Shown: piece after piece, positions 3,614 through 29,770 of the stretch
Layout: each line of letters begins with the position of its first letter
How positions within the stretch are numbered: position 1 is the first letter of the stretch
Notes under the pieces: model-generated
Told to the model about the DNA's origin: nothing
The model's database searches: none
What the model saw: only the letters and a program-made list of their open reading frames with translations
Position numbers and translations under genes: made by a program
IMG/VR virus record: IMGVR_UViG_3300033463_000015
Direction: 5' to 3' (one strand)
Source: a virus
Taxonomy: Duplodnaviria > Caudoviricetes
Length of the DNA: 64,000 nucleotides

Positions 3614-4510
3614 AAGCCTCAACCAACCGGCTTAGAATAGGTGGGTCGTGGATAAGCGCCGAATCGTAATTGGTGCTAGGGCGACAAGTAATCTTTAAAT
3701 GAGTGGTGCGAGTCCACAGCAATAGCAAAAGAGCGCGCTTTAAAGGTTATTGTTTCGACGGAAACTAGCCCCATAGTTAGTTCGTACACCTAACTATGTA
3801 TTTTAAGGGCAAAACAGGACTTCACGGCAAACTAAGCTCGTCAAAAAATGGGATGGACCGTGGCGCTGAAGAAAACTGCGTAACAAAAAGAGAAGGATGC
3901 CCGCTCAATAATAGGGTTCAAGGTGCCCAAATGCAAAGCAATGAGAAGGCTTTGAGGTGGGTCGTAACTAGCTAATACGATTTCATTGCTAAGAAGAATG
4001 GGTTAAATGGAGTTTGAAGAACAGCCAATGCGCAAACTGTATGGTTTAAGGGCATACACCAGATTGCTCGGCGCATTATAAAAGAAGAGCAAAGTAAGCA
4101 CACGGGATGGAAGGAAACGAGTTACGTCCTTACCGGCCCTGAGTAGTTGCGACGAAATGGGCGGGAGAAGCAGAAATAGTAACTGCACCCATAAATAGGC
4201 GAAAAACGAGAAAGAGAAGGAGAAGGCTCCGTTCAAACGGATTGATCACCGAAATTGAAGTAAGCGGAATAGGAAAGATGAAGTTCTACCGCCGACCGCT
4301 TCTCGTCACACAGTGTAGCCTATGTGCGTCCAAAGGCACATAAAAGAACGGCGGCGTAAATTACCGATGTTACAGGTAATCATATTGGAAAGCAGCAAGT
4401 TCGCCCAACAAGCGTGCGCACGCAAGATTGGGAACGGTCGGGACTGAGGATTGTGAGGATGCTGCTAGGCAATCTCACCCAGATGGGGTGGCTGGGTTAT
4501 CAAAACCCCT
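3614..4510 (+). ncRNA. Giant structured RNA, probable GOLLD
   Basis: ~900 nt purine-rich noncoding stretch between tRNAs; 3' part (GCCGACCGC...GGACTGAG...GGCAATCTCACCC) resembles the GOLLD 3' domain as recalled, not searched. Confidence 0.55.
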
Positions 4511-4748: not shown

Positions 4749-5732
4749 ATGCTAGATATTATCATTCCCGTCTACAATAATTAGCAAGGATTGACAGAAA
4801 CTTTATAGTCTATAAATCCCGCTATTATGAAGGATATTACAATTACAATTATAGATGATTGCTCTTCTGTACAATATGATGTAAAAACTATTCGTATGCC
4901 GCAGAATGGTGGCCCCGGAGCCGCACGCCAATATGGTATTAATCATACAATAGAACCATTTATTATGTTTGTAGATGCAGGAGATACTTTTGTTGATTTT
5001 GATTCGTAGTTAGAAATGATAGAAACAATAAAACATACAGATGCTTTATTTATTTCTTTTCTTCATAATACAATAAAAGAAGATGGTACAATTCGTCTTG
5101 AAAAGCATACTAACAATAGATTACACGGTAAAGTTTATCGTCGTAGCTTTTTAAATCAATATCACATAACATTTTGTTAGGGAAAAATTGGTTCATACGC
5201 CAATGAAGATATTGGCTTTAATTTTATATGTCATCATATATTAGAAGATAAAAATTTAGAAAATAAGTTTATATGTATAGATGTTCCATTAATTAATTGG
5301 ACTTATGATGAACAATCTCTTACTCATATAAATAATAATGCTTATGGATTTGTAAAATAGGTTCCTGGGCTTATTGAAAATACTCAACATATTGTAGAAG
5401 TATTAGAAGATAATGATTGTAATGCAGAAATAATTGCTAAAATATTATATAATATGCTAGGTAGATTATATACTGATTTTGTCAATGTTGCCGCATTTTG
5501 TCCAGAAAGAATTGATATTACTTGGAAACAATGTAGAACTTATTATCTCAATGATGTATTGCCCTACAAGGAATATAGAGACACTAATCTAAATAATATC
5601 TATATTGGCGGCTTTATGTATAGAGTAATGACTTGGAAGAAAAAAGTTCCAATAAATTATAATCGTTTTCTTCAAGAGTTAGAAAATTGTGAAAAAGCGC
5701 CAAAAAGATATTTTGAATTTTATCAATTATAA
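4749..5732 (+). CDS. Glycosyltransferase family 2; TAG=Gln
   Basis: MLDIIIPVYNN...IIDDCS...NGGPGAARQYG...FVDAGD motifs; fragments joined through TAG only. Confidence 0.85.
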
Positions 5733-7530: not shown

Positions 7531-8117
7531 AGGAGATATTAGGTTAGTAAATTTTGAACCAAGTGAAGATGTGCTAACCACACAGCTTGGGCTATCCGTA
7601 TAGTAGCTGTCACTGCCCGAAGGATACTTTTGGTTAAACAGCCGCCAAAACAGCAATGTTAGGCGATAAAGGAGAAACTCCAAATACTAAGGATAGGCGC
7701 TTGGGTGTTCGCAATCAAAAGCACTTTTCCTCTCGGCTACATAATAGAAAGCTTGTTGAACAGACGAGCCGAATCCAGATAAGGCATTGGGGTGGTAGCC
7801 AATGCAAACTCTGGAAATACCATAAGTAGCTATCGGCGTTGATGAAAGCCGGAAACGGCATATAAGAGAGGTTTGTGGTGGGAGTAGGCCAAAGCGACGT
7901 ACAAGTAATATTGAATAAAAGAATTATTGAATATTGCTGAATGGTTTGGCTGAAACTTGAAGGTAGTCAATCCTTCCTACACACGGCGAAAGCGGATCGA
8001 AGAAGCTATGGGATCGCTACCTATGGCTCAGCCTTCGGTTCTGTAGTGGCTGAATATGATTGAAGAATTACTCGGGTACGGCGAAGGTCGCAACAGTTTA
8101 CTAACCTAATATCTCCT
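7531..8117 (+). ncRNA. ROOL-like large RNA
   Basis: 587 nt; long terminal stem AGGAGATATTAGGTTAGTAAA/TTTACTAACCTAATATCTCCT; own promoter 7485-7512; internal motifs (GAAGGTAGTCAATCCTT, GGATCGCTACC, GCTCAG, GTGGCTGAATA, GAAGGTCGC) match ROOL as recalled. Confidence 0.75.
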
Positions 8118-10708: not shown

Positions 10709-11061
10709 GGGGTAGTTTTGGTTTCGACAGGTTATGAATGGTATTGAAATCACGGGTAGGCGGCGCACCTTACGCAGCAAACAATTGAACTGACAACGAT
10801 TATTTCTATAGCGAACTAAAGGCTGCTTAATTGCAGTTTCGCGCCTAAACAACAAACCTGCTAATCGGTAAATGTTTGCGGTTCAGAGATAGATTAGTAG
10901 ATTGGCTTCGGGCCAGCTGGTCTTCTCTATTCACAGTCCAACGAATAGAGTGGTGGAAGGATCATTCCCAGTTTGTCAGAACTTAAAACTGACTATCGTG
11001 TAAGTAATTTTCAATATTGGTTGTAGCTTGGACAGGGGTTCAACTCCCCTCTACTCCACCA
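10709..11061 (+). ncRNA. ssrA: tmRNA; tag (A)DNDYFYSELKAA*
   Basis: GGGGTAG...GGTTTCGAC 5' end, T arm and CTACTCC-ACCA 3' end with G3:U; tag ORF 10792-10830 ends in AA. Confidence 0.92.
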
Positions 11062-13151: not shown

Positions 13152-13649
13152 ATGTTTGATATTGAAGAAAATAAGCGTCTCTGCGACACATATCCCTTCC
13201 TTATTCCCTTCAATCGCTTCAGCGGCAAGCGTATTAACTGTGGCGAAAAAGGTTACTGGCCCGGTAATCCTGATGAGTATCCGCCAGAATGGAACTATGA
13301 ATATACAGAACTTGATGATATGCCAGATGGATGGCGTGATGCTTTTGGTGAACAATTGTGCTTTGAAATTAAACAAGCTTTGCTTGATGAAGGTGGCGAA
13401 AAGCTTCTTGATGAGTATCGCGTTGACCAAATTAAAGAAAAATATGGCACTTTAAGATGGTATGATAATTTTAGCACCAAACGCATTCAAGATATTCTTG
13501 AAAAATATGAAAATTTAAGTGCTCGCACTTGTATTAAATGCGGCAAGCCTGCTACTAAATTAAGCCGCGGGTGGATTGCCCCTTGGTGTGATGAATGCGG
13601 CAATGATGAAGATGAAGCGTATATGAGTTTAGACAATGCTTTTATTTGA
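13152..13649 (+). CDS. Conserved phage hypothetical protein with C-terminal Zn ribbon
   Basis: QIKEKYGTLRWY...TCIKCG...WCDEC. Confidence 0.75.
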   Translation: MFDIEENKRLCDTYPFLIPFNRFSGKRINCGEKGYWPGNPDEYPPEWNYEYTELDDMPDGWRDAFGEQLCFEIKQALLDEGGEKLLDEYRVDQIKEKYGTLRWYDNFSTKRIQDILEKYENLSARTCIKCGKPATKLSRGWIAPWCDECGNDEDEAYMSLDNAFI

Positions 13650-13789
13650 CTTTTGATAAAAAATTTGATATAATATATATAGAAAGTAGGAAATCAGCGA
13701 GTTCTCCCACGAATAAAGTTAGCGCTGTAAAGGGTGGGAACGGTAGGCAGATAGAAGTTGTGAGGTCGCTGATAGGCAACAGATGAAAT

Positions 13790-14052
13790 AGCCCCGTAGT
13801 TGAATGGTACAACACCGGTCTCTAGCCTTAATTGGAGCCTTATATGGAGACGTATAAGTGAAAATGCCGCTAATTCGGTGAAAGCTTAACTGCTAACCCC
13901 GAGCAAGGAGAAATCCGTGTGTAGAGACTTTACACGGCACATCTAGAACAGATGAAGATAAAGTCCGGACCACGATGTGAAAACAATGTGGTGAAGAAAA
14001 CCGTAATATCCCTCTGACGGAGGTTGTCTGGGTTCGAATCCCAGCGGGGCCG
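13790..14052 (+). tRNA. Amber suppressor tRNA(CUA), intron-containing
   Basis: Exons 13790-13823 and 13997-14052 give CCGGT-CTCTAAA-ACCG; long variable arm. Confidence 0.85.
13824..13996 (+). mobile_element. Compact group I intron (173 nt)
   Basis: U.G pair at 5' splice site (CTCT/GGAG), P3 TGCCG/CGGCA, P4 TTCGG/CCGAG, P7 GACTTTA/TAAAGTC, terminal G. Confidence 0.88.
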
Positions 14053-14054
14053 TC

Positions 14055-14203
14055 GCGACACTGTAGGCTTAGAAGTAGCCATCAGCTAAAGAGTTTATAT
14101 GCCTCCATTCGTGCGAAATGTATTATGGGCTACAAAAATTGTCCTATAAGTATGATGTGCGGTGGACAAAAGGTAAAATAATTTGGTGTAATAACACAGT
14201 CGC
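14055..14203 (+). ncRNA. 23S rRNA H43/H44 (uL11-binding) mimic RNA
   Basis: TGTAGGCTTAGAAGTAGCCATCAGCTAAAGAGT...GTGTAATAAC closed by GCGAC/GTCGC. Confidence 0.7.
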
Positions 14204-14233
14204 ATTTTAGAAGCGTGAAAACGCTTCTTGTAT

Positions 14234-14367
14234 CTGGGTGTAGCGCAGTTTGGTAGCGCATCAGATTTGAAAATCTAGCATAACGGTAATGCTTTATATC
14301 AGAGTTCGATTCTCTGGATTTTCACGGGATCTGAGGGTCGTGAGTTCAAATCTCACCACCCAGACCA
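14234..14367 (+). tRNA. tRNA-Pro (TGG or CGG) with a 57-nt tRNA-like insert in the anticodon loop
   Basis: CTGGGTG/CACCCAG-ACCA, TCAGA/TCTGA anticodon stem; insert ~14269-14325. Confidence 0.85.
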
Positions 14368-14535
14368 ACAGGATGGCATGAAACCTGTCACAATCTGCAT
14401 AGCTGAGTGTAGATAAAAACATGCCTATCAGCATTTAGCGCCGTTGGGAACCTTATGGTGGAAGAGCCCTACAAGAAAGAGGCCGAGTAGTATCCGCAAC
14501 TCTTCCGGCGCATTTTTTTATTAAAAGGAGAAAAT

Positions 14536-14946
14536 ATGATAGCAAATATTTGTGAGCATTGCCAACACTTTTTAGAAGATCAAGCAGAATATCATTATTG
14601 CCATGTATGTAATATGGATCATAGTTGTTTTTTACTAAAAAACAAAGAAAAAGTTTTTTATCGTGTAATTACATTTTGTAATTTACCAAAAGAAGATGAC
14701 AATTTTCCACCAGACTATGACACACCAGCTTATTATGAAAATAAAGATGATGCTATTCAATGTGTAAAAGAAAATTGCTGTGATATTTATGAGGGTAGCT
14801 ATCCAGCCGCAATGGTAATTGAAACTGGATTTGGATGCTATCCATATTGCCCCAATCGTTGGTACTTTGAATGGGAAGGCGATTGGAGAACTGGTAAGTA
14901 TGTGCAAAAAGAAGAACCTAAATCATTGGAGCATTGGGGACTATGA
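14536..14946 (+). CDS. Cys-rich hypothetical protein
   Basis: ORF with RBS. Confidence 0.65.
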   Translation: MIANICEHCQHFLEDQAEYHYCHVCNMDHSCFLLKNKEKVFYRVITFCNLPKEDDNFPPDYDTPAYYENKDDAIQCVKENCCDIYEGSYPAAMVIETGFGCYPYCPNRWYFEWEGDWRTGKYVQKEEPKSLEHWGL

Positions 14947-16419: not shown

Positions 16420-16705
16420 GCGGGTATGGCGGAATAGGCAGACGCCACAGACTTTAATAAAAAGAGCACTAGAATAGGAAACTTTCTGAGTGAATGCTGG
16501 CTAATTCGGTGAAAGTCCTTATGGGATAACGCCGAGCTAAATGGTTTAAAACCTAAATGTGTAGAGACTATATACCAGCCACCTAAATCATAAGATATGG
16601 TGAAGACATAGTCCAGACTACAACGTGTAAGCGGCCATAGTAATATGGAGTAGTAGGAAAATCTGTTGCCCTCTGGGCGTGCCGGTTCAAGTCCGGCTAC
16701 CCGTA
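16420..16705 (+). tRNA. tRNA-Leu(TAA), intron-containing
   Basis: Exons 16420-16454 and 16658-16705 give ACAGA-CTTAAAA-TCTGT. Confidence 0.9.
16455..16657 (+). mobile_element. Group I intron (203 nt)
   Basis: AATTCGGTGAAA, GTAGAGACTAT and ATAGTCC core; inserted after U34 as in cyanobacterial tRNA-Leu(UAA) introns. Confidence 0.9.
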
Positions 16706-29161: not shown

Positions 29162-29770
29162 ATGGACCCAGATTTCAATTTCCTAGTCCAAGATGATACA
29201 TCTGGATTAGACCCTGTAATGTATCAGTATTATCATCAAATGAATGATAATCGAACCCTTATTCTCAATACAGAAATTGATGAACGTATTGTAGAGATGA
29301 TTTATCTACCAATGAGAGATTGGGAAAATGACAGTGATACGCGCCCTGTGACGCTTATATTAAATTCACAAGGAGGTTGTGTATCAGACGGATTTTTCCT
29401 CGCTTAGTATATTAGCCAGTATAAGAAGCCGCTACATATTATTGTTCCTGGTTATGCTGCGTCTATGGCGGCTGTAATTCTAGCTGGCGGCGGCAATAAC
29501 GAAAATGTAACTCGTTTCTGCTTCCCAAGCACTTATGCGTTAATTCACGATGGATATGTGGCATTAAGCGCCAGTGAGGCTAAAACCGCTAATGATATTA
29601 TGGCTTTTAATAACAAGGTAGATGAAGACATTCGTAAATTCATCATTGATAATACTAACATTACCGCAGAAGAATATGATACCCACGCTAGGCACCAATG
29701 GTTTTTATCCGCTGATGAGATGAAGAAGTATAATCTCGTGGATAAAATTTATGGTGTTGATGCTGAATGA
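29162..29770 (+). CDS. clpP: ClpP-family protease; TAG=Gln
   Basis: LNSQGG, AASMAA, IHD, WFLSADE...LVDKI. Confidence 0.8.

Follow-up and report, generated by a model that had tools for sequence, protein, structure and literature searches.

An RNA element of 149 nt at positions 14055-14203, on the plus strand and amid the tRNA genes of a large uncultured phage, closely resembles the GTPase-associated centre of bacterial 23S rRNA. Comparison with genuine 23S rRNA and with a large set of viral relatives strongly supports the view that the phage element is a selected, free-standing mimic of the domain formed by the H42 tip, H43 and H44. The element belongs to a widespread phage family and is best explained as a non-coding RNA gene; we put at about even the chance that its product acts off the ribosome as a sponge or decoy of the stalk base and binds host uL11. 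The source, IMG/VR virus record IMGVR_UViG_3300033463_000015, is 101 kb long and has an estimated completeness of 57%; the window, that is, the whole stretch of DNA that was analysed, makes up 64 kb of it. As far as could be found, Rfam 15 holds no such family and a full-text literature search gave no description of such a phage RNA. Nor did we find any earlier description of a virus-encoded, free-standing and exactly conserved copy of a functional rRNA domain.

The element copies the 58-nt domain and interrupts it once

The element is numbered after E. coli 23S rRNA, with position 14055 of the window as 1051 and 14203 as 1108, and all of its parts lie on the plus strand. A closing stem of 5 bp joins 14055-14059 (1051-1055, the tip of H42) to 14199-14203 (1104-1108). 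Inside it stand an H43-like hairpin at 14061-14085 (1057-1081; loop 14070-14076, A1067 equivalent at 14071, U1072 at 14076) and a junction at 14086-14094 (1082-1090), which runs from C1082 to A1086 and continues with G1087, A1088, G1089 and U1090; the junction pair 1082/1086 reads C/A. The adjacency of 1090 and 1091 in 23S rRNA is not kept in the window, because an insert of 91 nt with no 23S counterpart (14095-14185) separates them. This insert consists of a long and irregular hairpin of 87 nt (14095-14181), which contains the internal-loop motif pair GUGCGAAAUG (14111-14120) and UGAUGUG (14153-14159), followed by a single-stranded UUUG linker (14182-14185) that lies between the insert helix and G1091 and is conserved in the family. 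The H44-like tip at 14186-14197 (1091-1102) carries a hexaloop at 14188-14193, with the A1095 equivalent at 14190 and the U1092-A1099 pair at 14187/14194. The extra helix turns the junction of the window element into a four-way junction. The preliminary description had read the layout as a GCGAC/GTCGC closing stem with an interruption of about 90 nt and with both loops retained; the 5-bp stem, the 91-nt insert and the A1067 and A1095 equivalents confirm that layout.

For the comparison with genuine 23S rRNA, the stretch L275:51-108 of the Salmonella LT2 record served as reference, and the window core was joined after removal of the 91-nt insert. Results showed that 42 of the 58 bases of the uL11-binding domain (E. 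coli 1051-1108) are identical, with 27 of 34 identical over 1057-1090 and 9 of 12 over 1091-1102. Eleven of the 16 differences sit in compensatory sets, namely 1053/1106, 1055/1104, 1057/1081, 1090/1101 and the three-base set 1072/1092/1099. The H43 and H44 hairpins, the 1082-1090 junction and the H42-tip closure of the GTPase centre are present in the window, as are all the conserved 23S loop and junction bases (1066-1071, 1083-1085, A1088 and 1093-1098). Ribosomal C1072 forms a base triple by pairing with C1092 and contacting G1099, and G1071 forms an equivalent triple with G1091-C1100 (PMC2952862). The window has U1072 with U1092-A1099 and retains G1071 with G1091-C1100. A compensatory change in the H44 stem, already noticed in the preliminary description, proved to be one base pair, C1092-G1099 to U-A; the joint alteration of its base-triple partner, position 1072, had been missed. 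Eukaryotic rRNA carries G1067 together with the U1072/U-A version.

The likeness to the 23S GTPase-associated centre thus covers the same helices in the same order, the loop sequences, the junction bases and the tertiary triples. The phage element differs from it, however, in being a stand-alone gene of about 150 nt in a tRNA array, outside any rRNA; in closing after 5 bp where 23S continues into H42; in its obligatory helix and UUUG linker between 1090 and 1091; and in position 1067, which is free to vary in the phage family. No match to LSU rRNA was found in the 101-kb record, where tRNAs flank the element instead. BLAST of the 46-nt 5' module against E. coli genomes gave no match, and there was no 11-base word in common.

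At least 143 viral elements share one architecture

The family was found by three 16-base pattern scans of viral contigs (IMG/VR), the loci from which were then sorted to non-redundant elements. The window's own H43 loop and stem gave 39 loci in viral contigs, the bacterial-type H43 (C1072) gave at least 119, and at least 120 came from the window-type H44 module taken with the linker upstream of it, many of them expected by chance. Nearly all occurrences of the bacterial H43 16-mer in IMG/VR are phage elements, not rRNA genes. After sorting, at least 143 non-redundant elements in viral contigs showed one shared order of parts: closing stem, H43, a junction ending in GAGU, insert, UUUG linker, H44 tip and closing stem. 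The closing stems are short and their sequence is free to vary. The preliminary description had tied its reading to structural conservation in other phages, and the fold is indeed kept in these relatives.

A covariance model, R1, was built from 36 other phage elements, with the window and its six nearest relatives excluded. On the 64-kb window it gave a single match (14052-14206, 83.8 bits, E ~6e-23), a value that excludes chance. The genuine Salmonella 23S domain scored 56.5 bits with the same model, and among 100 loci fetched via the 3' module only, 27 were strong members. No Rfam 15 family matches the element at gathering scores in the search of the whole window, and at E up to 10 none covers it in 13600-14500. 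Among 12 related loci, Rfam gave no family except a partial archaeal LSU match on the H43 module of one element, L011.

Hundreds of copies occur in IMG/VR, and the cultured carriers include jumbo and T4-like phages of Cronobacter, Pectobacterium, Serratia, Erwinia, Pseudomonas, Aeromonas, Acinetobacter, Xanthomonas, Ralstonia and Paenibacillus. Carriers identified in GenBank are GAP32, CBB, Serratia BF, several Erwinia jumbo phages, XbC2, XacN1, Vibrio 2.275.O and Yersinia fHe-Yen9-04, together with Acinetobacter ME3, Ralstonia RSP15, Pseudomonas pf16, Milchi, Astolliot, UNO-G1W1, Aeromonas 4_4572 and Paenibacillus Pd_22F. In GenBank the phage copies are unannotated or lie under a 'hypothetical protein'. 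R1 found exactly one copy apiece in the complete genomes of the cultured phages GAP32 (Cronobacter; 289514-289759), pf16 (P. putida; 29415-29605, minus strand) and Aeromonas 4_4572 (75080-75365), and the window's record likewise has a single copy. One contig, L099, holds three (2702-2892, 3893-4032 and 4762-5053). When one genome per prokaryotic species was scanned, the mimic-specific pattern occurred at 44 places, which is about the chance expectation; 27 of the 44 are full elements, on contigs of many phyla, and these elements probably belong to prophages or to phage contigs that were binned together with the genomes. So wide a distribution implies that the function is a general one, in taking over or protecting translation.

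Two variations on the common plan were also seen. Two nearby copies each are present in L291 (4010 and 5218) and L211 (5138 and 5456). A second insertion, which resembles an rRNA expansion segment, lies in the H43 3' strand between A1077/U1078 and the junction in L008, L009, L023/L033 and L156, and also in L170, L178, L207, L230 and L246.

Core stems covary and a base triple switches as a unit

Alignment A1 comprised 86 elements with 20 core pairs, and it was compared with 500 shuffles and with a control in which partner columns were slid by 1-3. The core pairs are 95.1% paired in the alignment versus 72.4% in the shuffles. The covariation score is 0.58 versus 0.15, a value reached by 0 of the 500 shuffles, and the slid controls stay at or below 0.16. 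The stems are thus strongly covarying in the phage homologs, an analysis that had been proposed as a check on the reading of the sequence. Among the 86 elements, all eight closing-stem pairs show double changes (17 to 51 per pair for 14055-14059/14199-14203), and the pairs 1057/1081, 1058/1080 and 1082/1086 covary, the last being U-A in 46, C-G in 18 and A-U in 8. G1059-C1079 and G1091-C1100 are unchanged throughout. The upper H43 stem is constant in A1, which was partly selected on that stem, and covaries in the set found by the 3' module only. G-U pairs are tolerated in the core stems, which indicates that selection acts on RNA.

The base triples gave a more specific signal. Across the family, the partners in G1071/(G1091-C1100) and 1072/(1092-1099) are either invariant or covary three ways. 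At 1072/(1092-1099), 90 elements have C/C-G, 51 have U/U-A and 2 are mixed, which makes 141 of 143 concordant; two of the sets were retrieved with the H43 16-mer only, and there the search did not depend on which H44 pair was present. The closest relative of the window element, L180, which is 80% identical and has the same insert class, carries C/C-G where the window carries U/U-A, so that all three bases have switched together within one sub-lineage.

A captured host 23S rRNA gene fragment, decaying and without function, might account for the high local identity to 23S and for the 32.6-bit match of the related element L011 to the Rfam archaeal LSU model. The copy ends exactly at the boundaries of the 58-nt domain, however, and has its own closing stem; its changes are compensatory, its insert site is common to hundreds of relatives, and the 101-kb record is without LSU rRNA. 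The covariation data refute a decaying fragment, an rRNA gene or pseudogene was rejected, and we regard such an origin as scarcely credible. That selection acts on structure and has not left a decayed rRNA, as the preliminary description had argued from the H44 stem, is borne out by the family-wide covariation, the three-way triple switch and a record without an rRNA gene.

Bases that build the fold are conserved and position 1067 varies

Base conservation was counted in 105 elements with the standard junction. Invariant or nearly so are G1059, U1060, G1071, A1073-A1077, C1079, U1083-A1085 and A1088 on the 5' side of the insert, and G1091, G1093, U1094, A1098 and C1100 on its 3' side; within the junction, U1083, A1085 and A1088 never vary, and 104 of 105 elements have A at 1084. 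As a guard against circularity, each loop was re-derived from elements found via the opposite module. In the 62 elements found independently of the H43 loop, U1066 and G1071 are each kept in 61; at position 1067, 41 elements have A and 21 have G, and 1068-1070 are variable too. The H44 loop reads GUA(A/G)NA in 81 of 89 elements, with A1095 constant. It is the most invariant loop of the family (G1093, U1094, A1095 and A1098 in 81-84 of 89), and the pair 1092/1099 next to it is C-G or U-A across the family. Across the family, the bases that build the fold are fixed while A1067 is not.

A1067 is the hallmark of the thiostrepton site and of the contacts with factors and tRNA, and uL11 recognises the folded domain, not A1067. 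Variation at 1067 together with invariant fold bases therefore favours recognition of the fold, as by uL11, over recognition of the A1067 loop, as by thiostrepton or in factor contacts. This bears on another explanation, direct binding of translational GTPases (EF-G, EF-Tu, IF2, RF3) or of thiopeptide antibiotics. An isolated rRNA fragment can bind GTPases and thiopeptides in vitro, and both factor-facing loops are in the window copy. Yet 1067 is G in a third of the family, 1068-1070 vary, and a sarcin-ricin-loop partner is lacking. A search with Rfam revealed no further rRNA-like piece, either in 13600-14500 or in 12 related loci. We consider direct binding of this kind very improbable.

The invariance of the H44 loop bears on the main rival explanation, in which the RNA, as a decoy substrate, would soak up effectors of the host or of a competitor with the GTPase-associated centre as their target (ADP-ribosyltransferases, methyltransferases or nucleases) and would spare the ribosomes during infection. 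A toxin of such a kind exists. The Rhs toxin Tre23 ADP-ribosylates 23S rRNA within 1095-1098 of H44 and blocks the EF-G GTPase (PMC8661411). The phage RNA holds exactly the H44 loop 1095-1098 invariant; this likeness bears only on the decoy-substrate explanation, and a Tre23-type enzyme meeting the phage RNA is a supposition. One idea about phage tRNA genes is that they replace or shield the targets of translation-directed defences, and a location in tRNA arrays would fit it. To our knowledge, however, no anti-phage defence system targets the GTPase-associated centre. In addition, one RNA per toxin turnover would be a poor defence unless the enzyme were bound tightly, and the invariant H44 loop bases are structural too, as in the A1070-A1096 contact described for the rRNA domain (PMC2952862). 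On balance, we judge a decoy substrate unlikely.

An insert helix and its linker accompany the core

The insert lies between 1090 and 1091 in 142 of 143 elements. Its median length is 138 nt, with a range of 40-349 nt in all but one variant, L166 (3707-3776), the sole element found without it, in which the H44 stem is different and longer. The insert starts with a helix directly after U1090, the first four base pairs of which form in 98, 97, 88 and 67% of 104 elements, and stops immediately ahead of the linker. About 120 of 143 elements have UUUG before G1091, as do 69 of the 89 found by a looser rule. At 87 nt, the hairpin of the window is among the shortest inserts; it folds on its own, and its helix is backed by compensatory changes in seven relatives. 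The internal-loop motif pair of the window recurs in 20 of 143 elements, with either core type.

These features would also be expected of a chassis, that is, a very stable and possibly uL11-coated fold that protects and presents a variable insert, the insert being the functional part. The insert is obligatory and opens with a covarying helix, the junction and the linker are conserved, and insert classes recur across both core types, the motif pair of the window among them. Inserts of 40-350 nt mostly have no shared sequence, however, while the core is conserved to the base, loops included, and a chassis would have no need of A1095 or of the 1066-1071 loop bases. We find a chassis role decidedly unlikely.

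Several observations on the insert stand apart from these readings. Pairing of UUUG with 1083-1086, as proposed by RNAalifold, was unsupported, since 1086 covaries with 1082 and UUUG is constant. The internal loop of the window's insert was rejected as a kink-turn, since it lacks the 3-nt bulge and a second G-A step; the loop strands at 14111-14120 and 14153-14159 loosely resemble the strands around Kt-42 of H42 (L275:27-38 and 118-135). A different module, made up of a C-rich run, a GNRA-like hairpin and 'GGTAAGG', recurs in about a dozen elements and has no Rfam match. It occupies A1 columns ~277-342, for example in L011, L162, L165, L167, L176 and L213, with L218, L223, L255, L263 and L268 as further carriers, and it differs from the insert class of the window.

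The element lies in a tRNA array

The window contains a long tRNA array with 20 tRNAs by ARAGORN, 7 of them within 3 kb of the element; the features named here are all on the plus strand. A promoter-like site at 13646-13674 (TTGACT, 17 nt, TATAAT, with TG before the second hexamer) agrees with the consensus in 11 of 12 positions and is a consensus match only. Downstream of it lies an intron-split tRNA of suppressor type (13790-14052), the discriminator base of which stands 2 nt before the element. A group I intron in its anticodon loop (13812-13990) matches Intron_gpI with 40.7 bits, below the gathering score of 50. The 3' half of this tRNA matches tRNA-TERM of Phage Phass-1, and its acceptor and T arm were read directly; judging from that match, the tRNA is probably an amber suppressor. 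The next tRNA (14234-14364) starts 30 nt after the element and has a 59-nt anticodon-loop insert without a ribozyme match. Between the element and this tRNA stands an 8-bp hairpin with a GAAA loop (14209-14228), possibly a 3' protective or processing hairpin. The same array holds a full-length ROOL RNA (7535-8110, 332 bits), a phage-encoded tmRNA with tRNAs on either side (10709-11061, 95 bits) and a second group I intron (16445-16630, 65.5 bits, above the gathering score). Elsewhere in the family, a tmRNA directly follows the mimic in L028 (2145-2297), and another tmRNA is present in the array of L016.

Across the family, 52 of 143 elements have a tRNA no more than 50 nt away by ARAGORN, and 91 have one at up to 1 kb, on the same strand in 91 of 91. 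ARAGORN misses intron-containing tRNAs such as the neighbours in the window, so that tRNA proximity is undercounted. For about a third of the elements this program detects no tRNA inside 1 kb, and the GAP32 copy lies between protein genes. A conserved protein neighbour was not found when 2,148 ORFs within 3 kb of the 143 elements were compared all-against-all: the largest cluster covered 10 loci, and the top two clusters gave weak HNH-endonuclease matches below Pfam cut-offs. A DUF2828/DUF7788 protein stands downstream of the mimic in 4 loci (L163:290-1414, minus strand, and three others), too few for an association. No homologue of uL11, bL12 or RelA/SpoT was found in the 101-kb record, and no uL11 in the complete cultured genomes of GAP32, Aeromonas 4_4572 and pf16, which suggests that the partner of the RNA would be host-encoded.

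The constant tRNA strand, the 52 of 143 elements within 50 nt of a tRNA and, in the window, gaps of 2 nt and 30 nt to the two neighbouring tRNAs could reflect a cis-acting element of the tRNA-array transcript, serving as processing punctuation, stabiliser or protein-bound insulator that lacks any trans function. The third or so of the family without a nearby tRNA and the GAP32 copy between protein genes speak against such a role, and punctuation needs no exact copy of an rRNA tertiary domain. We hold a purely cis-acting element to be improbable.

Proposed function as a decoy of the stalk base

Transcription of the element would take in the neighbouring tRNAs and would probably start at the promoter-like site (13646-13674); tRNA-processing enzymes would then release the RNA, its 5' end arising by cleavage after the discriminator of the upstream tRNA and its 3' end by RNase P cleavage before the downstream tRNA. 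The predicted product is an RNA of about 150-180 nt. Its two ends would fold into the compact tertiary domain of 23S 1051-1108, with the variable helix projecting from the H44 5' strand. Off the ribosome, the folded domain most likely binds the fold-recognising host protein uL11. RelA activation needs uL11, and a plausible outcome would be uL11-depleted ribosomes unable to activate RelA; alternatively, the RNA may capture factors and toxins that need the uL11-RNA surface.

Several lines of evidence are consistent with a uL11 decoy. The core is identical to 23S at 42 of 58 positions with mostly compensatory differences, and the tertiary-contact bases of the domain are kept. Variation occurs at position 1067 (41 A, 21 G) but not at U1066 and G1071. 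The elements keep to the tRNA strand in 91 of 91 cases, with no conserved protein neighbour and no phage uL11 found. On the other side, the minimal 58-mer would suffice for uL11, yet all members but one carry a 40-350-nt insert and UUUG; cells contain little free uL11; and invariance extends to A1095 and the H44 loop, which are not obviously required for binding of the uL11 C-terminal domain. The preliminary description had proposed titration of uL11/uL10, of GTPases or of toxins. The uL10 site lower in H42 is absent from the phage element, and this absence, together with the variable A1067, narrows that functional claim.

A more far-reaching idea, which we advance tentatively and think doubtful, is that the replica of the stalk-base RNA, found in large phages of many lineages, captures host uL11, or readers of the uL11-RNA surface, and so blinds RelA and the stringent response or other translation-linked defences. 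If true, it would represent a new class of viral counter-measure made from a copied part of the ribosome, with the obligatory insert as a second functional arm. The family offers a testable idea of how phages handle the stringent response or attacks on ribosomes, and tractable model systems exist. It also provides a map of natural mutations across the uL11-binding domain, among them repeated three-way triple switches.

Relation to other RNAs and a further structured stretch

The rplJ leader, which binds L10(L12)4 and is represented in Rfam by L10_leader, is similar in being an off-ribosome RNA that imitates a protein-binding site of rRNA, in the same stalk-base region. Ribosomal-protein leader mimics, however, are cis-regulatory parts of mRNAs that imitate a few recognition features, whereas the phage element copies a whole tertiary domain. 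Unlike such leaders, it adjoins no ribosomal-protein gene; its downstream feature is a tRNA, and no L11 or L12 gene was found in the record. Neither L10_leader nor other ribosomal-protein leader models gave an Rfam match at E up to 10 in 13600-14500.

ROOL, GOLLD, phage tmRNA and the T4 species 1 and 2 RNAs share a genomic niche, and probably a processing route, with the phage element, and they have no sequence or structural relation to it. The T4 species 1 and 2 RNAs (rnaC and rnaD) were rejected as relatives by direct reading and because R1 had no significant match in the T4 tRNA region that includes rnaC/rnaD (E 0.73). Further along the array, a stretch of about 150 nt without an Rfam match (14368-14519, plus strand) also appears structured; a GC-rich long-range stem and a T-run close it, and it directly precedes an ORF that starts at 14536.
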